Assembly: GCA_041665545.1 (NCBI GenBank)
Contig: JBAYIQ010000001.1
Location: 137,911-201,910 of the forward strand
DNA: 64,000 nucleotides
From: Patescibacteria group bacterium
GTDB lineage: Bacteria; Patescibacteriota; Patescibacteriia; UBA1558; GWA2-36-10
Direction of reading: 5' to 3'
The position numbers and the translations under genes are program-made. Under the pieces are notes generated by a model. It saw nothing but the letters and a program-made list of their open reading frames with translations. It was not told the origin of the DNA and did no database searches. Every line of letters starts with the position of its first letter. The first letter of the stretch is position 1. Positions 7,454 through 58,606 of this stretch are shown piece by piece.

Positions 7454-8425
7454 ATGGATAATTTTTGGGAAAAACTTAAACCACCCATTCTGACCACCAC
7501 GCCAATGGCGGGAATTACTGACTCGGCCTGGCGCCAACTCTGCAAAAAATGGGGTGCTGATGTGGTTTATACTGAATTCGTGTCGGTCGATGCTCTGTTT
7601 TATGATAGCAAAAAAACCTTGCAAATGCTGGAGTACAAAGCTAGTGAACAGCCAATTGTTGCCCAAATCTTTGGCAAAAGAAGCGATTTGTACCCCAAGG
7701 CCGCTAAACTAATTGAAAAACTCGGTTTTACTGGCGTGGACATAAATTTCGGCTGTCCAGCCAAAAAAGTAGCTGGCCATGGCGGTGGTATATGCCTACT
7801 CCGCGATATGGATACTGTCAAAAAAATAGTAGCCAATACTATTGAAGCAGTGACAATTCCAGTTTCCATAAAAACTAGAATTAGCTTGAATGCTGTGTCT
7901 GGATCTCCAGAAAAGGGAAAAATTACGGCCGTAGATTTATTAGATGCCTTGCAGGATTGTCCCCTAGCCGCGATTATTGTCCATGGACGCACCTATGAAA
8001 CTCCTTTTGCTGGCCCTGTTGACTTAGAAATGTTAAAAAATTTGCGTGAAAAATTCACTAAAGGAATATTTTTAATCAATGGCTCTTTTCAAAGTGTAGA
8101 ATCAGTAGTCAGTGATTTACAATACACCCAAGCTGATGGCATTGCCTTGGCTAGATCGCTCTATGGTAGGCCATGGATATTCAAACAAATCAAAGATTAT
8201 TTATTGACTGGGCAGTATCAAGAAATTACTTGGCCGGAAATAAAAGCTACTGCTATTGAGCATGCTCACCTGCTCTACGAAAATAAAGGGCCAAAAGGTT
8301 TTCAAGAAATGCGTAAACATTTATTATTTTATGCCAAAGGCCATCCTCAGGCCAGCTCACTCCGATACAGTTTGGTAAGAGTAAACACTCCACAAGAAGT
8401 AGAAAAAATATTCTCGGAAATATAA
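7454..8425 (+). CDS. dus: tRNA-dihydrouridine synthase
   Basis: TTPMAGITDSAWRQL, FGCPAKKV, TIM-barrel Dus motifs. Confidence 0.85.
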   Translation: MDNFWEKLKPPILTTTPMAGITDSAWRQLCKKWGADVVYTEFVSVDALFYDSKKTLQMLEYKASEQPIVAQIFGKRSDLYPKAAKLIEKLGFTGVDINFGCPAKKVAGHGGGICLLRDMDTVKKIVANTIEAVTIPVSIKTRISLNAVSGSPEKGKITAVDLLDALQDCPLAAIIVHGRTYETPFAGPVDLEMLKNLREKFTKGIFLINGSFQSVESVVSDLQYTQADGIALARSLYGRPWIFKQIKDYLLTGQYQEITWPEIKATAIEHAHLLYENKGPKGFQEMRKHLLFYAKGHPQASSLRYSLVRVNTPQEVEKIFSEI

Positions 8426-8469: not shown

Positions 8470-11400
8470 TTACATTGGCGATGGATGACTGCCAGGTGGA
8501 AACTTGTTAATAACACCCCTAACCGTGCTTTTAATAGACTCTGCTCCTTTTTTCAAAAAAGCTTGTCGCATAGCATTATCATCCAGCTTCAAAGCATCAA
8601 CCTTATGATCACCATCAGTATCAATCAAATAATGATCCGACCTTAAAGGCCAAACACCGGTATGATATTTCTGAACCAGAGCATACTCATCACCCATTTT
8701 CACTGGTACCCAATGACCAGATGGTATATCTTTGACTTTATCAAAACTATCAAGGGCCGAAGCTTCAAAGCCATGCATGTTTTCGGCAATAATTTGCGGA
8801 TTGCTTAAATCAAAATGTCCCGAACTTAAATCTATTTTATCACCACGCTTCAAAGCATTAATAAATAAATTAGTTTTCTCTTCAGACCAGCCGTGATCTC
8901 TAACATAATCATGTACTAATCCCGACAACTGTTCTTGATTACCACTGGCCACTACCTTAGCCACCAATTCATCTAGATGACCGGAGTTATTTGCCGCCTC
9001 ATATAGACCATGATTATAATCCCCGCCCTGTGTTAAAAATGTTTCCATTTGTTGTTGAGCAGCTGCTTGGGTAGCGGCCTCGGCAGCTTGAGCTGTGGCT
9101 GCTTCGGCGGCTGTTTTAGCTGCTATTTCAGTATCTACCAAATGCTGAGCACTTTCTTTAGCGTGATTTAATACATTGGCCAATTGATCTGAACTTATTG
9201 CTTGATGCGAATCAGCCAAGGTAAATGAACCATCAGCCAGTCTATCTACAGCCTGGCCATTGAATGTCCACTCATGCACAGAGCCATTAGGACTCAAAAA
9301 ATCTGTGCCAAAACTTCTAACCTCATGAGACACGACATCAACATTTTCTGTAGTTAAACGGACGCCAGCTTTGGCGGCTGCTTCTAAAGCGTCATTGTTG
9401 GCTAGTATGTTTGCCTCTCCACCGGCAGCAGCCATAGCATCAGCTCCGGCTTGTAAATGATCAATGGAATCCGAATGGCCAAGTACGCTGCTCAAATCGA
9501 TATTCTCACCAGGTATCAATTGATCAATATCGTGATGCAAACCAAATGCTTCTGGATGCGCGGCTGCGCTGTCTTTGACAGCGTCTATCATGTGAGTTTG
9601 TTTGGCCTCACCCAAGGCGCTCCATTTTTCATCACCCATTTGCTCGTGTACCTTGGCCTCAATAATTTTCCATAACGAATCACCTTTTTTTACTTTTACC
9701 ACAAAATCAATGTTTTTCGTATTCTGCTCAACTGCCTGTTCTGCTGCTACTTGAGTAGAATTAGTTGCGGCTTCATTAGCAGCATGAGCGGCTTGTTCAG
9801 CAGCATCAGCAACAGACTTAGCCATCATTTTTGCCGCCATTATATTAGAATAAATGCCAGCACCAACACCCAGACCAATAGATACGCCTTGCCTAATCAT
9901 TGACTTGGTACGATATTTATCAACCTCTGGTATCAGCTGTTCAGCACGTTCATCTTCAGTCTTTCCTTTGAGCACGTTCAACAAACGATTTGCGGTTTCT
10001 TGTTTTTTTTGTTCAGCTGAATCTTCTGTCCCCGCGACCTCTTCTTTCCCCTTTTCTTTTTGCCCGGCCTTTTCTTTGGTCTTATCTAAAACTGACTCTT
10101 TTAATTTTTCATAATAAATCTTTTCAAGAGTCTTTACTACTTCAGACTGAGCTGCTCCAAAGCGACCAGCTTCGGCCACTCCTACACCTTTTTCCAAGCC
10201 CATCCCCCTGAGGCGAGCCAACTCTACACCCAAATCTGATAATGATTTTTCCTTGAGGCTAGCTTCAAAAACATGTAACAATCTATCATGATTATTTTTA
10301 TCTTTCTCTTTATAAAAATTATACCCATGAACCTCGTCAATCAAACCTTTTTGTCCTAATCTCTTGGTTTTGGTATCCATCAATCCTTCGGCCGTCATAT
10401 AAGTACCACCACCAGAGGTAATGGTTCTACCAGCCACAAACGCTGAACTAGCAAAAACATTGGAAGCAACGGCATTTGTTAGACTACCCAATATACCACC
10501 GCTAGCAAAAGTAGCACCGGCACCAACGGCCATTAAGCCAATACCAGCTACCAGTCTGGCTTTACTATGTCTCTTCCACCATTCTTTAAACTTGTTCATG
10601 GTGTTTTTGTCGCCTGACTCTGCTAGAGCATCAACATTGGACTCCTCTTTTTGCAAATATTTAATATAAGCCTCGGCCAATACTTTTGGATCTAGTTCTC
10701 CACCAGCTTTCATGGCCTCAATTATCTCAATAATCTCGCCATGCTTTAATGATTCATATTTATCATGAGCTGAATCCAATTCATCTTGCGCCTCTTCTTT
10801 GTATCCACCAATCAAAAAATTACGATTCTTGCTAAATATTCTTTTTCTCTTTTTAACCAAATCAAAATATTTTGCTCGAGCATCATCAAAAGTAGCAATT
10901 TGCTCTGCTGTTCTTTCTGGTAAAATCACTGTTTTTTCCGGCTTTTGTCCAGACTCAGTCTTGGGACCTGGAACTGGTTCAGAAACAACTTCAGGGGGTG
11001 TTTCTGGACTCGTAGCTGCTGGTTTTATCGTTTCTGGCTCGGGATTAACAATCGGCTTTTTCTCAGCACCATTTTTTAATTTATTTATTTCGTCTTCAAT
11101 TTTTCTTATTCTGGCCTCAGCCAATAAGACTGCCTGCTCCAAAGCATCGGGTACTAATAAATCTTGTTCTTCTTTTGATTTCTGCAAAATAGCTGTGGCT
11201 AAGTCTGGCTTACCTAATAATTGAGCGGCTTCTTGCAAAGCACTTAATTTAGTTTCCCTAGTTTTGGCTGAATTAATTTCGGTAATCAAATCTTTCAATG
11301 GAGCTATCAATCTCTCCATTTGGGCTGTTTTTATTTCAACTTCCAAGTCTCTGATTTTATTTTCAACTGACAACTGGGCTTGCTCCAAGGTAGAGCTAAG

Positions 11401-12762: not shown

Positions 12763-14079
12763 CTAGGCGGCTTCCGCACCCTCGGCAATGTAGGGTGCGA
12801 TCGACCCGAGCTGTCTGTCCACCAGGACACGCAACTCGCTGCGACCAGCGAAATCGGTCTTAGCCACAGCATCGACGGCCAGTTTGACGGCCGAGCCGAT
12901 ATCGGGATTATTGAGAGCGGTGACCAGAGGCATCAGCTCAGCCAGACGAGCATCGCCCTTGCCCTCGGCAGTGATCACTGCGATCCTCTTGTCGAGGGCG
13001 GTCTTGACGACATCGATACGCTTGGCCGCCAGCTCGTTCAGTCGAGCCTGAACCTCTGGGCTGGGTGTCGGGTCCTCAATCAGAACACTCTTTACCTTAT
13101 AGCCCGAAACGCTTTCCAGCCGGGCAATGGCCTCATCCCAGTTCGCGTCTTCAAAGACGCCGCCGACTTGGATCTTCTCCAGAGTTTGACCCTTAAGGAG
13201 AACCCGAAAGTCAGCACCGAAGATTTCACTCGCATACTTGACCAAGCCGGCATCAGTCCGCACCTCGGGCGGAGCAGACCAATAGGCATTCAGATTCTCC
13301 GGCCCATCAAGAATGGGGATGAACTTAACATTTACATCTCCCCCGACCTCGATATCGGGTTCACCATCAAGACCTGGGATCTTGCCACCAAGAGTAGGTA
13401 TTTTCTCAGTGACACAAGAGAGTTGTAAACCACGTCTTTCCAGGACGACATTGAATTCGAGACCTGGGGCATTCCTAGGAATCTTCGTCCGGTGGAAACC
13501 GTTGTAGAAGACATACTTGTCGAACATCCACCAGGCGTGAAAGCAACGGCGTCCGAACAGTTTCGGCGTCCATAGTTCCTGCTCCGGAACCTGAATGTTC
13601 ATGATGGCCATCGTAGATCCCGTGGCCAACGACCAAAAAATCACGGTCACCATGTGACCAAATGTCAGGATACCCAAGGTCAGGCACACGCCAGTCACAA
13701 TTGTCGAATAGAATGCCCAGGTGTCTCGCTTGTTGCCAAGCCACGGCCGCGGTTTGTAGGTGTAGTAGGCCTGTAGCGCCGTAATAGCCGCAACGAGCAG
13801 TGCCAACACCACACGAAACCACGGGAAATTGTGGGAGACCTCCTTACCAGCTGTCTTTCCAACTGTCACAGCTGTCTTTACGTCCTCAACTACAGCCGAC
13901 GGCGCAAAAAACAGCCAGTGATGGTTCCAGGAAGCGGCCAGCACTCCCACAGCCAGCAAGGCCGTGGTAATGATCGCTCTCCACCCCACCTTCAGCTTTG
14001 TGCTGTTATTGACCAGCGCGGCAACAACGGACACGATGATCGCAATCACCGCATCAAGGACGAACTTGTTCTGAAACAT
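12763..14079 (-). CDS. SPFH/band-7 domain membrane protein (HflK/C-flotillin-like), GC-rich horizontally acquired gene
   Basis: multi-TM N-terminus; C-terminal KAVDAVAKT..RIAVITAEGKGDARLAE SPFH-like region; GC content far above flanks; own consensus promoter and AAAGGAGGGG SD. Confidence 0.6.
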   Translation of the reverse strand: MFQNKFVLDAVIAIIVSVVAALVNNSTKLKVGWRAIITTALLAVGVLAASWNHHWLFFAPSAVVEDVKTAVTVGKTAGKEVSHNFPWFRVVLALLVAAITALQAYYTYKPRPWLGNKRDTWAFYSTIVTGVCLTLGILTFGHMVTVIFWSLATGSTMAIMNIQVPEQELWTPKLFGRRCFHAWWMFDKYVFYNGFHRTKIPRNAPGLEFNVVLERRGLQLSCVTEKIPTLGGKIPGLDGEPDIEVGGDVNVKFIPILDGPENLNAYWSAPPEVRTDAGLVKYASEIFGADFRVLLKGQTLEKIQVGGVFEDANWDEAIARLESVSGYKVKSVLIEDPTPSPEVQARLNELAAKRIDVVKTALDKRIAVITAEGKGDARLAELMPLVTALNNPDIGSAVKLAVDAVAKTDFAGRSELRVLVDRQLGSIAPYIAEGAEAA

Positions 14080-28170: not shown

Positions 28171-28196
28171 AAATTTATAACTTTAATTATAAGGTT

Positions 28197-28270
28197 TATC
28201 GCCCAGAGGGCGACCCCGTCCCGCAACGCGAGATGGCGACACCACTGCTCTACCAATTGAGCCCGCCCGG
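28197..28270 (-). pseudogene. fossil 5' half of tRNA-Thr(CGT)-like gene fused to GC-rich hairpins
   Basis: GCCGGGCGGGCTCAATTGGTAGAGCAGTGGTGTCGCCA resembles 5' half of adjacent tRNA-Thr, then GC hairpins GCCCAGAGGGC etc. Confidence 0.5.
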
Positions 28271-28322
28271 CACGCCGATGGCGTAGCCATGGCGGAAGGG
28301 CTATCTCGGCCCAAGGCCGTCT

Positions 28323-29618
28323 TTATGGCCTTAATCTATAAATCGTCCTAGGAAACGGTATGGTCTCCCGGACATGTTCCAAGCCGCAAACCCAAGCCAC
28401 AATACGCTCTAAGCCAAAGCCAAAACCACCGTGTGGGACCGAACCATATTTTCGCAAATCCAAATACCACTCAAATTCTTTGAAGGGCAATTTATGCTCT
28501 TTGATGCTTTTTAGTATTGTGTCATAGTCATCTTCTCTTTGTGAACCACCGATTATTTCACCATAACCCTCAGGTGCCAACAAATCACTGCAGGCCGCCT
28601 TGTCTTTATCTTTCTGATCACGCTTCATGTAAAAAGCTTTTATCCGGCTTGGATAGTTATTTATAAAAATTGGATTGTCGTATTCTTTGGTCAGCATGGT
28701 TTCATCATCAGCCCCAAAATCATCACCATCTTTGATATCTGAGCCAAGCTTTTGTAATTTTTTTATGGCTTCAGAATAAGTCAAATGATAAAATGGCTTA
28801 TCAATATTTTGCAAAATCTTAACATCACGTTCTAATATTTCAAGTTCTGTTTTATTTTTTTCCAAAACTCGTTTGACCATGTGTCTGATCAATGCCTCTT
28901 GAGTGCCCATATTCTGTGTTAAGTCTACAAAAGCCATTTCAGCGTCCATCATCCAAAATTCTGTTAAGTGGCGTCTGGTCTTGGACTTTTCTGCTCTGAA
29001 AGTCGGACCAAAATCAAAAACGCGTCCATGAGCATAAATAGCTGCCTCTAAATAAAGCTGGCCACTCTGTGACAAATAAGCAGTTTCATCAAAATATTTT
29101 ACCGAAAATAAATCAGTTGTCCCTTCACAAGCACTAGGCGTCAAAATTGGTGAATCAATTTTAATAAAATTATTTTGCGCCATGAATTCATAAGTGGCCT
29201 GAATCAAAGTATTGCGTACGCGCTGGATAGCCCACTGCTTTTTGGAGCGCAACCACAAATGACGATTGTCCAGCAAAAAATCAATGCCATGATCTTTTTT
29301 GCTAATCGGATATTCTTCGGCAATCTGAAAAAAATCAAAATCTTTTACCAAAATTTCATATTCCTCTTTTTTGGGATGCTTGTTAACTAGGCCAATTATT
29401 TTCACCGAAGATTCTAGAGATGCTTTTTGGGCTAGCTCCCATTTGTCTTTTGGCAAATCATCGGCATTGACAATAGCTTGAGAAAAATCCGAGCCATCCC
29501 TAAGTTGCCAAAACATAATTTTGCCAGAAGAACGAAAATTATAAATCCAACAGCGAATCTCTACTTCTTGGCCGACAAATTGAGCTAAATCTTTTAATAA
29601 TATTGCTTGCATAATCAT
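28323..29618 (-). CDS. asnS: asparaginyl-tRNA synthetase (start revised to MIMQAILLKDL)
   Basis: GPTFRAEKSKTRRHLTEFWMMDAEMAF matches AsnRS motif 2/3; class II; N-terminal 28 aa of track ORF likely spurious. Confidence 0.8.
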   Translation of the reverse strand: MIMQAILLKDLAQFVGQEVEIRCWIYNFRSSGKIMFWQLRDGSDFSQAIVNADDLPKDKWELAQKASLESSVKIIGLVNKHPKKEEYEILVKDFDFFQIAEEYPISKKDHGIDFLLDNRHLWLRSKKQWAIQRVRNTLIQATYEFMAQNNFIKIDSPILTPSACEGTTDLFSVKYFDETAYLSQSGQLYLEAAIYAHGRVFDFGPTFRAEKSKTRRHLTEFWMMDAEMAFVDLTQNMGTQEALIRHMVKRVLEKNKTELEILERDVKILQNIDKPFYHLTYSEAIKKLQKLGSDIKDGDDFGADDETMLTKEYDNPIFINNYPSRIKAFYMKRDQKDKDKAACSDLLAPEGYGEIIGGSQREDDYDTILKSIKEHKLPFKEFEWYLDLRKYGSVPHGGFGFGLERIVAWVCGLEHVRETIPFPRTIYRLRP

Positions 29619-29741: not shown

Positions 29742-29761
29742 ATTTTATTGATCTTCGAAAT

Positions 29762-30110
29762 AACGAGTTGGGGGGTGTTGGGACGCTCGAGAAGTCCTGG
29801 GGACACCTGCTAGTTGTGGTCAGGGCCCGAACTGTTTGGGCTCGCTGTAATCCCGCAAAGGTTAGCGGGTGCAGTTTATCAGACCACGGATGGCAATCCT
29901 GATCCTTGTCTGTTGGGACAATGGGGATGGACCCGTCTTATCGTCGTCCCGAGGCCTCGGGCGACCAGCTGGCAGTGCCGATTTTTGAAAAACGTTCCCC
30001 ACAGACGGTGACGTGAAGCGCTCACGTTTCCTAGCGGGGATATCCTTGGCCAGGAGAGAATACAGGCCTCGGCTTACCTTCAGGACTTGTCCTGGCACCC
30101 CCCGTGTTCC
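29762..30110 (+). ncRNA. rnpB: candidate RNase P RNA (bacterial type A-like)
   Basis: P1 pairing GGGGGGTG (29769-29776) with CACCCCCC (30096-30103); CR-I-like GAGAAGTCCTGGGG; CR-IV-like ACAGGCCTCGGCTTA (30062-30076); GC-rich about 340 nt with own promoter and terminator. Confidence 0.55.
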
Positions 30111-30116
30111 TACCGA

Positions 30117-30165
30117 TGAGGAGTCTTTGTCTACACCATGGCAAGACTCCTTTTCTTTTTGTTTA
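30117..30165 (+). terminator. rho-independent terminator after RNase P RNA
   Basis: ggagtctttgtctacaccatggcaagactcc + ttttcttttt. Confidence 0.55.
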
Positions 30166-30220: not shown

Positions 30221-30412
30221 CTACACCTTCATGCAGGGAGCGTGAGGTGTGTCGCGATGCAAGCGCAGCTTCTCGGGAGTGATGTTGTTCCCGCACTCCG
30301 CCATACTGCACTTGACGCAATGCTCGCTCTTGAGGTGCCGAAGCCCCCTTTCCGAACGCGGAAGCGTTCTCCTGTTCGCATTGTTCCCCTTGGTGACCTG
30401 CTTCTTGCCCAT
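30221..30412 (-). CDS. small GC-rich Cys-containing protein (64 aa), moron-like cassette B
   Basis: start MGKKQVTKGNN preceded by AAGGAGGG SD; Cys cluster HCVKCSMAECGNN; promoter TTGACA-17-CATAAT at 30461-30489 (minus); 14-bp GC hairpin terminator 30178-30212. Confidence 0.45.
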   Translation of the reverse strand: MGKKQVTKGNNANRRTLPRSERGLRHLKSEHCVKCSMAECGNNITPEKLRLHRDTPHAPCMKV

Positions 30413-30547
30413 GGGTCCCTCCTTGAGATACATGATCACCAACGAAAGAGCAGTCTATATATTATGTATAGAAATTATTCTTTTGTCAAACAAACAACCC
30501 GCCCGCCACCGCATTGCGGGGCGAAACGGGTTGAAATTAAAAATAAT

Positions 30548-34946: not shown

Positions 34947-35014
34947 AATTAAATATTATTTTACCATATTTTGGCCTTAAAGAAAAATTTGACAAAAAGA
35001 AAACAGGGAGGACT

Positions 35015-35368
35015 TTGCCTGATGGCGCGATCCTCCCTGTGCGTGGTACAAGCGGCCATTCGGCCGCGCGGCGTTCGGGCTTGGCCAAACATCCAGACTG
35101 CACCTGTCCAGACCCACTTGTAGACAACGGCGAATTCCGCTGTAGACGAATGGTCGTTGACCTTAGGGCTCCTAGCCGCAATACCCGATATCGGTGGGCT
35201 CCGCTGGCTCGGTATCAGCCAGAACAACGACTATGGCGTTGTTATGAGAAATATGTGGAGGCCCAAGCGCTTGGTATTTGGCCAGCTGACCAGCCGAACC
35301 CGCCAAGGGAAGAGCCGAACAGCGGTCTAGCCGTGGCTTTGGGCCCCCTTGAAAAAAGAGCGTACTAA
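35015..35368 (+). CDS. GC-rich hypothetical ORF (cassette C); could alternatively be noncoding
   Basis: GGGAGGA SD before ATG; GC far above flanks; terminator ctgccaaaattagcag+T at 35421-35450. Confidence 0.3.
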   Translation: MPDGAILPVRGTSGHSAARRSGLAKHPDCTCPDPLVDNGEFRCRRMVVDLRAPSRNTRYRWAPLARYQPEQRLWRCYEKYVEAQALGIWPADQPNPPREEPNSGLAVALGPLEKRAY

Positions 35369-35457
35369 GGGGAAATAGTAGCATAATATCTAATTTGTGT
35401 CAATAACAACAAAAAACTGCCAAAATTAGCAGTTTTTTAGATGACAACCAATATTTA

Positions 35458-50836: not shown

Positions 50837-51253
50837 TCACTTGCTCACACTGGGAAAATGCGGGTCACGGTACTCGTCATTGTCGTCTTTGACAACGAAA
50901 GGAGAAACATCCTCCAAGCGCAACTCGGTGGTGCAGATGAAGGGTGACGACTCGACGACACGCGGTGGTTGAAACAGATTGGCCTCAGGAGTCAGCTTAG
51001 AGGCCAAAAAGTCCCGAATCCTCCTATGCCAGAGCAAGCCCAATGGCTTCTTGTTCTTCCTTTGCCAGACCAACTCCAAGCGCCAAGGCCTTTCCTCAGC
51101 CGTGATCGACACCTCCAAGCCACGATGGCTGATGTACTTCATAATCTCCGGCAACAGTAGCCCAAGCTGCTGACCCAGATGCCTCCTGACAGCCAAGGTG
51201 TTGACATGACGACCGTTAGCGAACTTAATGTCAGCTCTTTTCTTACCGACCAT
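50837..51253 (-). CDS. GC-rich hypothetical protein (cassette D), 138 aa
   Basis: AAGGAGGAA SD before ATG; promoter TTGACA-17-TATGTT at 51303-51331 (minus); GC-rich. Confidence 0.5.
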   Translation of the reverse strand: MVGKKRADIKFANGRHVNTLAVRRHLGQQLGLLLPEIMKYISHRGLEVSITAEERPWRLELVWQRKNKKPLGLLWHRRIRDFLASKLTPEANLFQPPRVVESSPFICTTELRLEDVSPFVVKDDNDEYRDPHFPSVSK

Positions 51254-51666: not shown

Positions 51667-51695
51667 TTGACAAAAATAAATAAATATGATATAGT
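51667..51695 (+). promoter_or_regulatory. promoter TTGACA-17-TATAGT for DHH phosphoesterase cassette
   Basis: ttgacaaaaataaataaatatgatatagt. Confidence 0.5.
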
Positions 51696-51718
51696 AACGA
51701 ACTTGTTCTTTATAAACT

Positions 51719-51771
51719 CCTAATCAGAATTTTGTCCAGCAAATTGCCTGATAAAGCTCTGATTAGGAAAC
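51719..51771 (+). promoter_or_regulatory. 5'-UTR stem-loop (11-bp stem TCCTAATCAGA/TCTGATTAGGA with 29-nt loop)
   Basis: perfect inverted repeat between promoter and SD of DHH gene. Confidence 0.4.
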
Positions 51772-51800
51772 TATCACTTCTCTGAACTGGAGGACTTACC

Positions 51801-52700
51801 ATGGATTACCCGCGGAACTCGGTCTGCATCTATCACAGTGCGGACAATGACGGCGCTTGCAGTGCGGCCATCGCCAAGTTGGCGGCTCGTGTCAGACTGA
51901 TCCCCTGGAATTATGGACACCCCATACCCTGGGAGAGAATACCCGTCGGCGCTACGATCTTTGTGGTCGATCTGCTGCTCACCAGCCAGAACGACAACAG
52001 TGGTTTCCAGGACATGGAGCGCCTGCGCAAGATCGGTAAGCTCGTCTGGATTGACCATCACGACAAGGCCATCAACGACGCCAAAGTGTTGGGTTTGGCC
52101 TATGATGGCATCCAGCGAGTTGGTCAGGGCGCTTGCGCTTTGACCTGGGAATATTTCTTCCCCAACAAGCCCATGCCCGAAGCAGTCCGGCTGATCAGTA
52201 ACTTCGATGTCTTTGACCATAGGGAGGTAAAGACAGTCCATTTCCAGTACGGCTTGCGTGCTTGCAATGCCAAGCCCTGGATGGACATTTGGAAAGATCT
52301 TCTTAAGCCACCCTTCCAAAGCGATGCTCTGGTCAACCAGCTGGTCAGTGATGGTATCCCCATCACCAAGTACCTGACCTTGGAATTCGCCCGCTACATG
52401 CGAGTCTGTGGCTTCGAGACTATTCTCGACGGGCACCGTGCCATTGCGGTGAATCGTGCTCTGGTCAACAGCCAGATCTTCGAATCTGTACACAACCTCG
52501 AAGACTATCCGTTGCAGATGTACTTTTACTGGAGCTCTGACGGCTCATGGAAGGTGAGCATGCGTTCGCCCGACGGTCGCGTGAACTGTGCAGAACTCGC
52601 AGCCAAGTACGGTGGTGGCGGACACAGCCGAGCAGCCAGTTTCGTGTGCCAGGAACTGCGCTTTGAACTCAAAGGGCGACCTGACGCCGATCCTGACTGA
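51801..52700 (+). CDS. DHH/DHHA1 phosphoesterase (NrnA/DhhP-like nanoRNase or cyclic-dinucleotide phosphodiesterase), GC-rich cassette E
   Basis: motif I HSADNDGA, motif III WIDHHDKA, DHHA1 GGGGHSRAAS; GC-rich; TGGAGGA SD. Confidence 0.7.
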   Translation: MDYPRNSVCIYHSADNDGACSAAIAKLAARVRLIPWNYGHPIPWERIPVGATIFVVDLLLTSQNDNSGFQDMERLRKIGKLVWIDHHDKAINDAKVLGLAYDGIQRVGQGACALTWEYFFPNKPMPEAVRLISNFDVFDHREVKTVHFQYGLRACNAKPWMDIWKDLLKPPFQSDALVNQLVSDGIPITKYLTLEFARYMRVCGFETILDGHRAIAVNRALVNSQIFESVHNLEDYPLQMYFYWSSDGSWKVSMRSPDGRVNCAELAAKYGGGGHSRAASFVCQELRFELKGRPDADPD

Positions 52701-52711
52701 GTAACGAGAAG

Positions 52712-52745
52712 TTGATCCTGACCCCGGCTAGTGGCAACACTGGTC
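52712..52745 (+). terminator. GC hairpin terminator (GACCCCGG...CCGGGGTC)
   Basis: inverted repeat after DHH gene stop. Confidence 0.45.
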
Positions 52746-52855
52746 GGGGTCTTAAATTTGTTTATAATTTATAAATATTGGGTATAAATTGTATATAAAC
52801 CCGGCTTGAAAAAAGCCGGGAAATGGGTTAAGCTAATCCTACATTAAGCAAACCC

Positions 52856-55453: not shown

Positions 55454-55774
55454 TTATTTAGTAACAATCTTTTCGATGTTTACTTCTTCTTTGATTTGTC
55501 TGTGACCGTATCTTTTTCGATAACGAGTTTTGTTGTGGTATTTGAAAACATCAATTTTCTTCTCTTTGAATTCTTTGACCAAGGTAGCTTCAACTTTAGC
55601 ACCTTTGACCAAAGGAGCACCAACCGTAATATTTTCTTTATCATCGATTATAGCCAACACTTCTTCAAAAACAACAGTTTGACCTGCTGTAGTGCCTTTT
55701 ATTCTTTCGACGCTTAATTTTTGCCCAGTGGCAATCAAATATTGTTTACCACCAGTTCTGATTATTGCTTTCAT
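55454..55774 (-). CDS. rplU: 50S ribosomal protein L21
   Basis: MKAIIRTGGKQY...KYHNKTRYRKRYGHRQ L21 signature. Confidence 0.9.
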   Translation of the reverse strand: MKAIIRTGGKQYLIATGQKLSVERIKGTTAGQTVVFEEVLAIIDDKENITVGAPLVKGAKVEATLVKEFKEKKIDVFKYHNKTRYRKRYGHRQIKEEVNIEKIVTK

Positions 55775-55853
55775 AAAATCTATAGCTATTTTTAATACGG
55801 GTTAAATATTAACAAAGATTAGCAATTGTGTCAATAATACTGAATACACGCCA

Positions 55854-55882
55854 TTGACAAGATATGAAATGTGTGATATAAT
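55854..55882 (+). promoter_or_regulatory. perfect consensus promoter TTGACA-17-TATAAT (cassette F, gene 1)
   Basis: ttgacaagatatgaaatgtgtgatataat. Confidence 0.6.
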
Positions 55883-55958
55883 ATAAAATCGTGGTTAATT
55901 TCTACCACGTGCACCTTAGCAAGACACAAGGTAAATATGGCCAATGGAGGTCCTTGAA

Positions 55959-56693
55959 ATGGAAAAGACCGAAAAGACCGCCTTTGCTGTTCTGCACATG
56001 AGCCGTCACGAATCCAGCTCGCCCCAAGCCAACTATGGCCTGGGAACACTGGGTCCCATGGACTACCGCGGAATCCCGGTTCGCTACCACCCCAATTCCT
56101 TCATGCGTGACTCCGGTTACCGCATGCTGGAAATCCAGCTCCCGAAGAACCAGAACGAAGCGGGAGTCGCGATGGCTGTCATGCACGCAGGTCAGATTCG
56201 GGGAGCCATCAGTTCCCTGCAGGATCAGCTCAACAGTCTGACACCGGAAAAGATCTCCCACTACAACCTGATGATCAACGAACTGCTTCGCAAGGGCTAC
56301 CTGATGCACAGCCAAGTCCTCTACTTCAAACCCTGGCAATCCGGTCTCGTGGCCAAGTACGGCTGGGGCATCAATGGCTCTGGTGGCATGGTCATGTTCG
56401 GACAGAACAACTTCGGACAGAGCTTCGGAGTACAGGCCGGACACCAGCTGGTGCAGGTGGTCTTCCGACCCACTCCGTACGCCGACGGACTGATCTGTCG
56501 CTACGGCTGGGGCATCACCGTATGCCAGCCGGAAAGCATCAAACGTGTGCTGAGTGGTCTGCGCAAGCAGCTCGACAACGCCGTGTTCTTCCAGGAGCAC
56601 GGCTGTCTACTCGAAGACTTCGATCGGCCGAGTCTGGCATGCCGACTGATCGCCCGTCAGGCGACCCACGCGTGCCAGCAAACCACCGCATAG
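55959..56693 (+). CDS. GC-rich hypothetical protein with duplicated YGWGI motif (alt start 55944)
   Basis: GGAGG SD 7 nt before ATG at 55959; repeats AKYGWGINGSGG / CRYGWGITVCQ; GC-rich. Confidence 0.5.
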   Translation: MEKTEKTAFAVLHMSRHESSSPQANYGLGTLGPMDYRGIPVRYHPNSFMRDSGYRMLEIQLPKNQNEAGVAMAVMHAGQIRGAISSLQDQLNSLTPEKISHYNLMINELLRKGYLMHSQVLYFKPWQSGLVAKYGWGINGSGGMVMFGQNNFGQSFGVQAGHQLVQVVFRPTPYADGLICRYGWGITVCQPESIKRVLSGLRKQLDNAVFFQEHGCLLEDFDRPSLACRLIARQATHACQQTTA

Positions 56694-56772
56694 CGAGCAA
56701 CTGCTTGCTACGGTGACAACGACAGGACATTTTCTGACGCCAAGCGTCTGAAGGTGTCCTGTTTTCTTATAT

Positions 56773-56800
56773 TGACAATAGCTATATTATATGCTATAAT
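56773..56800 (+). promoter_or_regulatory. consensus promoter TTGACA-16-TATAAT (cassette F, gene 2)
   Basis: ttgacaatagctatattatatgctataat. Confidence 0.55.
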
Positions 56801-56858
56801 ATTAAATGTACCCCAGGATTCTAGTCTCGGGTTGTTCATTTCCAAGGAGGGATTTCTC

Positions 56859-57257
56859 ATGAGTCCGAAACAGCTTGCTGCCATCCCGTTCTGCATTTTG
56901 ACCGTAGTTGCCATGTTCTTATGGGTTGCCGGTCGTCCCACTGGCAAGCCCGACACAACGCGACTCTTCTCAATTGGGACTGATGCCCATCAGGTTCCGT
57001 GTGGTGACATCGGCTACGATGCCACCTTCCGCTACTATGCCGGAAACGACACGGCGGGCGTGACGGTAGCCAATCTCAATCCCGGGCTCGTAACGATCCA
57101 TCTCATGGATCGCCTGAGCAGGGATATCTACGGACGCAAACCCGTGCGGATCAACGGTGATCAGGCCAACCTGGAGATCATCAACAACGCCACCAATGAG
57201 GTGATTTGCCGCTGGCAGATCACCATCGATCGTCAGGTCGGTGTTGCCACCCGCTGA
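56859..57257 (+). CDS. GC-rich small secreted/membrane-anchored hypothetical protein (start revised to MSPKQLAAIPF)
   Basis: AAGGAGGGA SD precedes ATG at 56859; N-terminal hydrophobic segment; track ORF start 56754 lacks SD. Confidence 0.5.
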   Translation: MSPKQLAAIPFCILTVVAMFLWVAGRPTGKPDTTRLFSIGTDAHQVPCGDIGYDATFRYYAGNDTAGVTVANLNPGLVTIHLMDRLSRDIYGRKPVRINGDQANLEIINNATNEVICRWQITIDRQVGVATR

Positions 57258-57295
57258 GTACGCCCTCCTCCGGTCAGGCCACAAATGCCCGACCA

Positions 57296-57346
57296 AAACT
57301 CGTCGTCCATATCTTTTGGATCAAGCGACGAGTTTTCTTTTTACAA
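57296..57346 (+). terminator. long-stem terminator
   Basis: aaaactcgtcg...cgacgagtttt + ctttttac. Confidence 0.5.
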
Positions 57347-57399
57347 AAAAACCACTAAATAAATTAGTGGCTCTATAAACAAATTATTTCTAGATTTAG

Positions 57400-57876
57400 C
57401 TAAGATTTAACTATTATACAACGACCAGTAAAACCGGCCTTAAATTTTTCTAGTTCTATAAATTTATATTGCCAATTATAGTCAGGGATTATAGAAGTAT
57501 GATTAACATAAAACCCTTTTATATTTTCTATATTACCCTCAAATCCTACAATAAGAGCTAAATGGCCTCCAAATCTTTTCCAGAAAAAAATTCTTTCCCT
57601 GAGTGGTTTATAATCTTCGAAAGCCCATTTGATTGAAATAATTGGTAGACAATTTTGCTTTAATGCCTCGCCTAGTTGAACAGAATCTACATTGCACTGG
57701 GTCGTTGCCTGAAAACCATACTCTTGAGCCAAACGAACTAACCCGCCATGACTCCACCCGGAAGAATCTTTATAGGCACCAAACTCAATACCTTTTTTAA
57801 TATATTCTATTATTGATGGTGAAAGGGGTTTAGCTTGCATTGCGAGAAATCCATCTATTGCCATTTTAAGGCACAA
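57400..57876 (-). CDS. C39-like (papain-fold) peptidase domain protein
   Basis: 158 aa; TQCNVDS (Cys), GWSHGG, GGHLALIVGF (His) arrangement resembling Peptidase_C39_2/BtrH-like. Confidence 0.4.
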   Translation of the reverse strand: MCLKMAIDGFLAMQAKPLSPSIIEYIKKGIEFGAYKDSSGWSHGGLVRLAQEYGFQATTQCNVDSVQLGEALKQNCLPIISIKWAFEDYKPLRERIFFWKRFGGHLALIVGFEGNIENIKGFYVNHTSIIPDYNWQYKFIELEKFKAGFTGRCIIVKS

Positions 57877-58224: not shown

Positions 58225-58301
58225 TGGTGGTCGCACCTGGACTCGAACCAGGGACCTTCGCAATGTGAATGCGACGCTCTAACCAACTGAGCCATGCGAC
58301 C
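58225..58301 (-). tRNA. tRNA-Val (anticodon CAC)
   Basis: GGTCGCA acceptor, anticodon loop TTCACAT, T-loop GGTTCGAGTCC, CCA encoded. Confidence 0.85.
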
Positions 58302-58531: not shown

Positions 58532-58606
58532 TGGTGACCTCTAGGGGAATCGAACCCCTGTTGCCAGGATGAGAACCTAGTGTCCTAACCACTAGACGAA
58601 GAGGCC
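58532..58606 (-). tRNA. tRNA-Glu (anticodon CTC)
   Basis: GGCCTCT acceptor, D-loop AGTGGTTAGG, anticodon loop TTCTCAT, T-loop GGTTCGATTCC, CCA encoded. Confidence 0.85.

Follow-up and report, generated by a model that had tools for sequence, protein, structure and literature searches.

Two small genes of high GC content lie side by side in a 64,000-nt stretch of the genome of a Patescibacteria group bacterium (GenBank assembly GCA_041665545.1, contig JBAYIQ010000001.1, positions 137,911 to 201,910). This whole stretch was analyzed and is called the window here. The first gene, open reading frame 1 (ORF1), founds an undescribed protein family, and the second, ORF2, encodes a smaller protein that is predicted to be anchored in the membrane or exported. 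Both reside in a chromosomal slot bounded on one side by rplU, which encodes a ribosomal protein, and on the other by two tRNA genes, and the contents of this slot are hypervariable among related genomes.

Two GC-rich transcription units

Each gene is an autonomous unit that runs from its own promoter to its own terminator. The features of the two units are as follows.

55854..55882, + strand: promoter P1 of ORF1, read from the sequence (TTGACA, 17-nt spacer, TGaTATAAT, with an extended -10 element)
55889..55958, + strand: ORF1 5' untranslated region (UTR), about 70 nt from the predicted start, with a hairpin at 55890-55909 and GGAGG at 55946-55950
55959..56693, + strand: ORF1 coding sequence (CDS), 244 amino acids (aa); soluble protein, isoelectric point (pI) 9.1; GC content at codon positions 1, 2, and 3 (GC1, GC2, GC3).61,.40, and.73
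56721..56768, + strand: ORF1 intrinsic terminator, a 14+5-pair hairpin followed by TTTTCTT (-33.6 kcal/mol, z -4.8)
56772..56800, + strand: promoter P2 of ORF2, read from the sequence (TTGACA, 17-nt spacer, TGcTATAAT)
56807..56858, + strand: ORF2 5' UTR, about 52 nt, with GGAGG at 56846-56850
56859..57257, + strand: ORF2 CDS, 132 aa; signal-anchor at residues 6-24, then about 105 aa forming a domain with a predicted extracytoplasmic location
57295..57342, + strand: ORF2 intrinsic terminator, a 12-bp G+C-rich stem followed by TTTTCTTTTT (-27.9 kcal/mol, z -4.7)

An initial annotation of this sequence had described two adjacent GC-rich ORFs, a duplicated YGWGI motif in the first product, and an N-terminal anchor in the second, all of which are present at the positions given. 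Its proposal that each gene has a GGAGG Shine-Dalgarno (SD) element and its own terminator, and hence forms an autonomous unit, was borne out by sequence and folding. It was also correct that both promoters match TTGACA/TATAAT perfectly, but the spacers, reported as 17 and 16 nt, are both 17 nt. For ORF1, an alternative ATG farther upstream at 55944 would give a protein of 249 aa. The start at 55959 is preferred because of its SD spacing and because remote homologs, which begin MKTAY, align with it.

Perfect TTGACA-N17-TATAAT promoters occur three times in the window, versus 0.08 expected, and none of 100 shuffled sequences reached three. The third belongs to a native tRNA-Lys gene, the rplU promoter is near-consensus, and promoters of the same type stand at the head of slot genes in related genomes. 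Thus, the earlier view that these signals are unlike those of native genes is not supported. In the locus of a sister metagenome-assembled genome (MAG; L005/L015, loci of related genomes being given L numbers), the -35 and -10 hexamers of P1 are kept and the spacer differs. A near-identical copy of P2 heads ORF1 in L005 and ORF2 in L006.

Transcription would start about 7 nt past each -10 element, near 55889 and 56807, and GGAGG lies 8 nt upstream of the ATG in both genes. The stem of the ORF1 leader hairpin is preserved in L005, where both of its sides have changed (G-C to A-U). All eight ORF1-family transcripts with a pattern-matching promoter carry a hairpin 1-6 nt from the predicted start, formed by unrelated sequences. 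Hairpins at 5' ends, such as those of ompA and of Gram-positive leaders, shield mRNAs from 5'-end-dependent RNases. A shared leader motif, AATAGTTC, is present in some relatives and absent from the window.

Both terminators were missed by a simple terminator scan because of their long loops. Substitutions in L005 leave the hairpin of the ORF1 terminator intact there (-31.0 kcal/mol, z -5.7), and the ORF2 terminator, found also in L005 and L006, has a counterpart of 91% identity in L014. The combination of a consensus promoter, a 5' hairpin, a strong ribosome binding site, codons biased toward NNC and CTG, and a strong terminator would be expected to produce long-lived, heavily translated mRNAs. 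Judged by these signals, the products of ORF1 and ORF2 are probably abundant.

Evidence that ORF1 and ORF2 are protein genes

ORF1 and ORF2 are both genuine protein genes. When ORF1 is compared with its 87%-identical homolog in the sister MAG, the ratio of nonsynonymous to synonymous substitution rates (dN/dS) is 0.44 and substitutions number 19, 15, and 30 by codon position; for ORF2, dN/dS is 0.22-0.26 (three sequences). In both ORFs GC3 exceeds GC1, which exceeds GC2, and protein homologs are detectable where DNA similarity has gone. A lack of conservation in any other genome together with a dN/dS of about 1, which the initial annotation had taken as the mark of noncoding DNA, is therefore not what was found. 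The genes nonetheless evolve under looser constraint than six neighboring housekeeping genes, for which dN/dS is 0.02-0.11. Their dN of 0.07-0.09 compares with 0.005-0.03 in five of these six, the other being argS at 0.12.

It is very improbable that the units are instead GC-rich structured noncoding RNAs in which long ORFs arose by chance from scarce stop codons. This idea draws on other GC-rich islands in the window that appear noncoding and structured, on whole transcripts whose folds are stronger than those of dinucleotide-shuffled sequences (z -5.8 and -5.0), and on the existence of a long antisense ORF of 232 aa (55902..56600, - strand). However, the excess folding of the transcripts is largely due to their terminators, and shuffling synonymous codons in the two CDSs gives z values of -1.5 and -1.3, compared with -2.2 to +0.1 for three host genes. 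Hidden RNA structure within the CDSs was rejected on this basis, and Rfam covariance models gave no match to the locus. The antisense ORF is shortened to 93 aa in L015 while the sense ORF is intact, and it was rejected as a gene and attributed to the GC-rich codon pattern. The distribution of substitutions over codon positions, the dN/dS values below 1, and the protein homology that outlasts DNA similarity likewise argue against an RNA function.

The probability is close to nil that the abrupt jump in composition reflects an assembly or binning artifact, in which GC-rich reads from a different organism were misjoined to an AT-rich contig. The 18 kb around the two genes are 100% identical across a Joint Genome Institute (JGI) metagenome, a European Nucleotide Archive (ENA) assembly, and an assembly from Logan for a different run (source data sets JGI 3300037810, ERZ27249449, and SRR6484324). 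The window sequence is also present in the 295,640-bp Patescibacteria MAG contig JBAZSO010000001.1 (GCA_041662385.1). Because the junctions are identical in independent assemblies made from different samples with different assemblers, the GC jumps are not an assembly artifact. In addition, a homologous arrangement is found in more than 10 other MAGs.

A new protein family with a duplicated module

ORF1 and ORF2 have no match in Pfam, PHROGs, NCBIfam, or PADLOC (in PADLOC none at E ≤ 1, in Pfam and NCBIfam none with a meaningful E), in agreement with the earlier remark that neither product has an obvious known domain. The same libraries returned nothing usable for the other GC-rich genes and nine neighbors of the slot, and sequence and profile searches of the PDB gave noise alone. 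A HMMER search of 1.84 billion representative proteins recovered for ORF1 just four remote relatives, with identities of 27-31%, and no homolog outside the slot between rplU and the tRNA genes. Viral contigs (IMG/VR) scanned with both proteins contained no relative, and a metagenome scan using the P0005-P0008 alignment found no match. Further members were sought by RecR-anchored sampling of related genomes, which yielded six that are recognized by the family profile (E 6e-14 to 3e-5). Literature searches on GC-rich gene classes in Patescibacteria, or the candidate phyla radiation (CPR), turned up no earlier account of the family or of the pattern described here.

The founding of this undescribed family by ORF1 is accompanied by an internal architecture in which a beta-rich-plus-helix module is duplicated in tandem. 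The two halves of ORF1 are homologous to one another (hhalign probability 91.8%, E 7e-7). An alignment of 12 sequences (A6) contains few conserved positions, among them glycines in YG-x-G and G-Y/F hairpins. Each half closes with a long helix, I-x-x-V/A-I-x-x-L-x-x-Q, whose L-x-x-Q is conserved in both. Family members are soluble proteins of 220-294 aa, and most of them are mildly basic (pI 6.1-9.3). ORF1 contains two copies of YGWGI, at Y134-I138 (56358-56372) and Y182-I186 (56502-56516). This exact repeat is limited to the lineage of the window; remote members lack the second copy and its short insertion.

Structure prediction, one of the checks that had been proposed for both proteins, succeeded only for the first. 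An AlphaFold2 model of ORF1 based on six sequences has a predicted local distance difference test score (pLDDT) of 73.7 and a predicted template modeling score (pTM) of 0.76, with each half modeled as about five strands and a long helix. Foldseek comparison of this model with the PDB and BFVD gave nothing significant (best PDB E 0.05, template modeling scores < 0.3). The top matches are enriched in OB, S1, RPA, and eIF2alpha proteins, weakly and below significance, so an OB/S1-like fold is mentioned as a lead and is not claimed.

ORF2 has a single hydrophobic segment (Kyte-Doolittle 2.47 at residues 6-24) and is predicted to be a single-pass anchored or exported small protein. Its AlphaFold2 model, from a two-sequence alignment, was unusable (pLDDT 45.7). 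The ORF2 family comprises four members by jackhmmer, and the three relatives are all in the nearest genomes. Kinship between ORF2 and the other small anchored proteins of the slot was considered and rejected, as jackhmmer finds only the four family members and BLASTP nothing. In L014, the ORF2-family gene is followed within the same promoter-terminator frame by an ORF of 47 aa (8705-8848), which has an SD element of its own and is predicted to encode a transmembrane helix; the ORF2 unit of the window has no such second gene.

An anciently occupied, hypervariable slot

An ORF1-family gene is present in 11 distinct loci, always in the same slot with rplU on one side and tRNA genes and a cluster of a murE-like ligase and a penicillin-binding protein (PBP) on the other, and always reading away from rplU. 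The nearest named relatives in a RecR search are MAGs of Candidatus Parcubacteria and Candidatus Komeilibacteria. Across the clade, identity within the family falls to 25-30%. Therefore, the ORF1 family is a long-standing resident of the slot, and the earlier description of the genes as inserted there is not supported.

Nor do the two genes constitute an obligate pair, and the earlier reading of them as a pair is not supported. In L006 and L014 an ORF2-family gene is present and the ORF1 family is absent, and the five loci L016-L020 have an ORF1-family gene and none of the ORF2 family, with no small partner at all in L018 and L019. In 9 of 11 loci, the gene next to the ORF1-family gene encodes a small protein that carries a signal or anchor at its N terminus. 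By sequence, these partners form at least five unrelated groups. The partner lies upstream of the ORF1-family gene everywhere except in the window and L005. The ORF1 family is missing altogether from the slots of L022-L024, and in L023 an s140-like small anchored protein is found there.

The pattern of divergence suggests how this variety arises. RecR of the window and of L014 is 99% identical, yet the ORF2-family proteins share only 32% identity, while the promoter/UTR region is conserved at 80% and the terminator at 91%. ORF1-family proteins share 25-28% identity where RecR shares 88-93%, yet those of L018 and L019 share 48% at a RecR identity of 81%. Because these values are not monotonic, replacement of whole alleles fits better than uniformly fast divergence. 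In L005, the ORF1 unit stands between two copies of a 29-bp promoter, and in L006 a single copy is followed directly by ORF2, so that units may be gained or lost by recombination between copies. Repeated promoter copies and conserved terminators could act as recombination arms. The slot is thus anciently occupied and hypervariable, and close relatives differ by the gain, loss, or exchange of its units as complete alleles.

Other elements were encountered in the slots of related genomes. L013 contains a SAM (S-adenosylmethionine) riboswitch with its own terminator (1056-1160; RF00162, 59.9 bits, above the gathering score). Downstream of this riboswitch is a GC-rich orphan gene of 121 aa, and the ORF1-family gene comes immediately after that gene. 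An insertion of about 60 nt, palindromic and flanked by short ACGGGG repeats, sits between the rplU promoter and that of the slot in L006 (about 378-442) and L014 (about 8089-8152). It is not found in the window or L005, and it resembles a miniature inverted-repeat element.

Composition of the slot genes

GC content is 58% in ORF1 and 57% in ORF2, versus 39.7% for the window, and GC3 is 0.73 and 0.68 versus a median of 0.37 for window ORFs. The GC3 distribution of window ORFs is bimodal, with host genes at 0.24-0.48 and five larger protein genes at 0.63-0.73. These five encode a 438-aa membrane protein, a 138-aa protein (c138), a DHH-like phosphoesterase, ORF1, and ORF2. Codon choice favors NNC over NNT (ATC 0.92, TTC 0.88, TAC 0.86) as well as CTG, AAG, and CAG. 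ORF1-family genes have a GC3 of 0.59-0.96 in every locus, and rplU of the same loci has 0.19-0.34.

Polarized third-position changes among three ORF2 sequences comprise 22 from A or T to G or C (weak to strong, W>S) and 20 in the opposite direction (S>W). Host genes show 279 W>S and 264 S>W changes at low GC, and the host bias would give an S>W share of 0.77 in ORF2 (P 3e-5). The equilibrium of ORF2 at high GC, together with constantly high GC over deep divergence, suggests that the composition is maintained and is not the fading trace of an import. Ordinary translational selection is an unlikely cause because the ribosomal gene rplU lacks the codon bias, and a specific RNA structure is unlikely given the outcome of the synonymous shuffles. 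We infer that the high GC is actively kept. One candidate cause is selection acting on codons or on the mRNA itself, for example for a message that is GC-rich, resistant to nucleases, or special in some other way. The other is GC-biased gene conversion at a site of frequent recombination, with which the elevated GC1 and GC2 and the accelerated protein evolution agree.

Neighboring genes and other GC-rich units

The slot lies in a housekeeping region that includes argS, dnaB, ybaB, recR, rplU, a murE-like ligase, a PBP, rsmH, and mraZ. The following features flank the two units.

55454-55774, - strand: rplU ORF, flanking the slot on the ORF1 side
55806..55834, - strand: rplU promoter, TTGACA-N17-TAATAT with TG; near-consensus (10/12 matches) and back-to-back with the ORF1 promoter
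57400-57876, - strand: AT-rich gene for a C39-like peptidase, 158 aa, between ORF2 and tRNA-Val; weak Peptidase_C39_2 match (E 0.003)
58225-58301 and 58532-58606, - strand: tRNA-Val(CAC) and tRNA-Glu(CTC), called by ARAGORN, on the far side of the slot

The placement of the two genes between rplU and the tRNA-Val/Glu locus was thus correctly reported, except that the C39-like gene intervenes before tRNA-Val. The C39-like gene is missing at the equivalent position of L014, L015, and L006. By sequence reading, the same two tRNAs flank the slot in L009, L016, and L019. These tRNAs decode only the G-ending codons GUG and GAG.

Further GC-rich units and islands were located in the window. Each of the protein units has its own TTGACA promoter, a GGAGG-type or otherwise strong SD element, and a terminator.

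12763-14079, - strand: unit for a 438-aa multi-pass membrane protein; GC3 0.63-0.67, no Pfam match
30230-30421, - strand: unit for a 63-aa protein, of the same design by reading; no Pfam match
50837-51253, - strand: unit for the 138-aa protein c138; GC3 0.63-0.67, no Pfam match, 33-68% identity in four relatives
51678-52763, + strand: GC-rich unit for a DHH/DHHA1-like phosphoesterase (gene 51801-52700), cleanly absent in L014 and L015
26025-26300 (- strand), 29745-30165 (+ strand), and 34995-35375 (- strand): GC-rich islands, each with a TTGACA-type promoter and a terminator hairpin

The breakpoint of the DHH unit lies inside the dnaB promoter just past its -35 hexamer, which now serves the inserted gene, and a short ATAAATAT microhomology is present at both junctions. 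No codon-position pattern of GC is seen in the three islands, which fold more stably than shuffled sequences do (z -4.4, -5.6, and -3.5), and we regard them as candidate structured RNAs. They match no Rfam family, even at a lax threshold. A motif-based guess that the island at 29745-30165 is RNase P RNA was dropped because Rfam gave no support even at E ≤ 10. Another GC-rich segment (28180-28330, - strand) adjoins tRNA-Thr(CGT) and carries a tRNA-like D-arm sequence, GCTCAATTGGTAGAGC, in which ARAGORN and Rfam call no tRNA.

Interpretation and alternatives

On balance, and by no wide measure, we favor the reading in which ORF1 and ORF2 are accessory genes that are expressed abundantly, act at an interaction interface, and have their composition maintained. 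They would be two independent single-gene units drawn from the bacterium's own lineage-specific accessory gene pool. ORF1 would yield a soluble protein of the cytoplasm, and ORF2 a small protein that is anchored in the membrane or exported. Hypervariability, elevated dN/dS, and membrane-anchored partners would point to an interface of interaction or conflict with a host cell, phage, or neighboring cells, and away from housekeeping.

Several observations weigh against this reading. The presumed abundance of the products is read from sequence signals, and rplU, whose codons lack the bias, leaves ordinary translational selection without explanatory value. The equilibrium argument rests on ORF2 (42 changes) and the steady GC3 of the family. 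For c138 (50837-51253), the counts are 14 W>S versus 36 S>W, and the pooled signal is weaker (P 6e-4); this excess may fit slow decay or a parsimony bias at higher divergence. The link between the ORF1 family and anchored proteins in 9 of 11 loci could signify a shared dumping ground, and the absence of the ORF1 family from L014 and L022-L024 makes it dispensable. Finally, confidence in the ORF1 model is no more than moderate, and Foldseek provides no significant match.

Among the alternatives, the two genes could be parts of a module in which a cytosolic ORF1-family protein works with a small anchored protein as a sensor and effector, toxin and immunity, or anti-phage system. The frequent adjacency of the two kinds of genes speaks for it, as do the apparently cotranscribed partner genes of L009, which are 35 nt apart, and the hypervariability of both partners, which is reminiscent of conflict systems. 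Most family members also end in a short basic helix, amphipathic by eye, that could contact a membrane. We nevertheless consider such a module unlikely. Its partners would come from at least five unrelated families in varying gene order (ORF2 downstream here, the partner upstream elsewhere), usually with a separate promoter and terminator for each gene. Moreover, the ORF2 family stands alone in L006 and L014, as does the ORF1 family in L018 and L019, and PADLOC gave no match. Consensus promoters are also unusual for defense or toxin genes.

We give still less credence to recent foreign cassettes, in which GC-rich donor or phage DNA arrived beside rplU, brought or captured its promoters, and is now decaying to host composition. 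The sharp edges of the GC contrast, the presence or absence of units among close relatives, and the S>W excess in c138 would all be accommodated, and the neighboring DHH unit is indeed a clean 1.1-kb indel with its breakpoint within the dnaB promoter. The anatomy of the units is also that of published morons (PMC3594210). However, one and the same family holds this slot throughout the clade, with identities of 25-30%. Its genes are GC-rich in every locus and reach a GC3 of 0.96, and the composition of ORF2 is at equilibrium. No homolog exists off the slot among the 1.84 billion representatives or in IMG/VR, and the surroundings are those of housekeeping genes. The genes up to 10 kb away in both directions include no integrase Pfam family and no phage gene, and PHROGs gave no match.

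The reading of ORF1 and ORF2 as abundantly expressed interface genes can be extended, more speculatively, beyond this locus. The window contains at least six such GC-rich protein units, and AT-rich Parcubacteria might possess a separate category of self-contained units, insulated from the genome in their composition, that have consensus promoters and stable mRNAs and whose GC3 is driven to 0.6-0.96 and kept there by selection or by a local conversion bias. At fixed slots, complete alleles for their hypervariable proteins would be swapped. In that case the ORF1 family would be an abundant, new-fold group, possibly associated with nucleic acid or membranes, that mediates the specificity of symbiont-host or symbiont-phage encounters. 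We put this forward as a possibility and hold it doubtful.

Comparison with known systems

Phage morons are autonomous promoter-gene-terminator units of deviant GC content in prophages (PMC3594210). The slot units resemble them in comprising one gene with its own promoter and terminator, in having a GC content unlike that of their neighbors, and in being present or absent among related genomes; like morons, they would also be expressed independently of flanking genes. In contrast, the slot units lie in a housekeeping chromosomal region with no phage context or phage homologs, and the ORF1 family has long resided in one fixed slot with its composition maintained. Morons are considered extra DNA relative to related genomes, which implies horizontal spread; the slot units are present or absent among relatives, yet the ORF1 family holds its slot clade-wide and ORF2 is equilibrated.

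The nearest precedent is provided by the lgr genes of Protochlamydia amoebophila, which are lineage-restricted, have a G+C content well above that of the symbiont genome, and encode a protein that as a whole has no homolog elsewhere (PMC2216083). Each of them is a leucine-rich-repeat gene of 5.6 kb, and their origin lies in recent serial duplication within a single genome (PMC2216083). Both cases involve a GC-rich, lineage-restricted family in an AT-rich genome, but the slot genes are 0.4-0.9 kb long, single-copy, and fixed in position across many genomes.

Integron cassettes are also small, mostly single-gene units arranged head to tail whose content varies between strains. Unlike the slot units, which have consensus promoters of their own and no integrase within 10 kb, they are typically promoterless and are expressed from a common Pc beside intI. 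No attC-like site was seen by reading the 3' ends of the units, which are plain terminators and T-runs, although no attC-specific search was made. The ORF1 and ORF2 units are not integron cassettes.

S-layer genes and ompA encode very abundant envelope proteins from strong promoters and with stabilizing 5' leaders. A consensus promoter, a long leader with a 5' hairpin, a strong ribosome binding site, strong codon bias, a strong terminator, and high variability between close strains are shared with the slot genes. However, ORF1 is small and basic and has no export signal, its abundance is presumed, and rplU lacks the codon bias. A further comparison is offered by hot spots of GC-biased gene conversion, among them the mouse gene Fxy in the pseudoautosomal region and core genes of bacteria that undergo recombination. 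Very high local GC3, raised GC1 and GC2, faster protein evolution, and a recombining locus are common to both. Here, in contrast, the edges match a single CDS, several separate small genes are affected, and recombination is deduced from sequence comparison.

Implications

CPR bacteria are rich in unannotated genes, and their dealings with hosts and phages are little understood. The locus described here offers a tractable handle, being a fixed slot marked by rplU on one side and by tRNA-Val(CAC), tRNA-Glu(CTC), and murE on the other, and containing hypervariable genes of a new family with signals for strong expression. It also presents an evolutionary puzzle, as a GC3 of 0.6-0.96 persists beside an rplU of 0.19-0.34 over a divergence that has erased most protein identity. 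If selection maintains this GC content, a layer of control at the level of mRNA or codons would have gone unrecognized in minimal cells. If biased gene conversion maintains it, the slot would be among the sharpest bacterial examples of that process.

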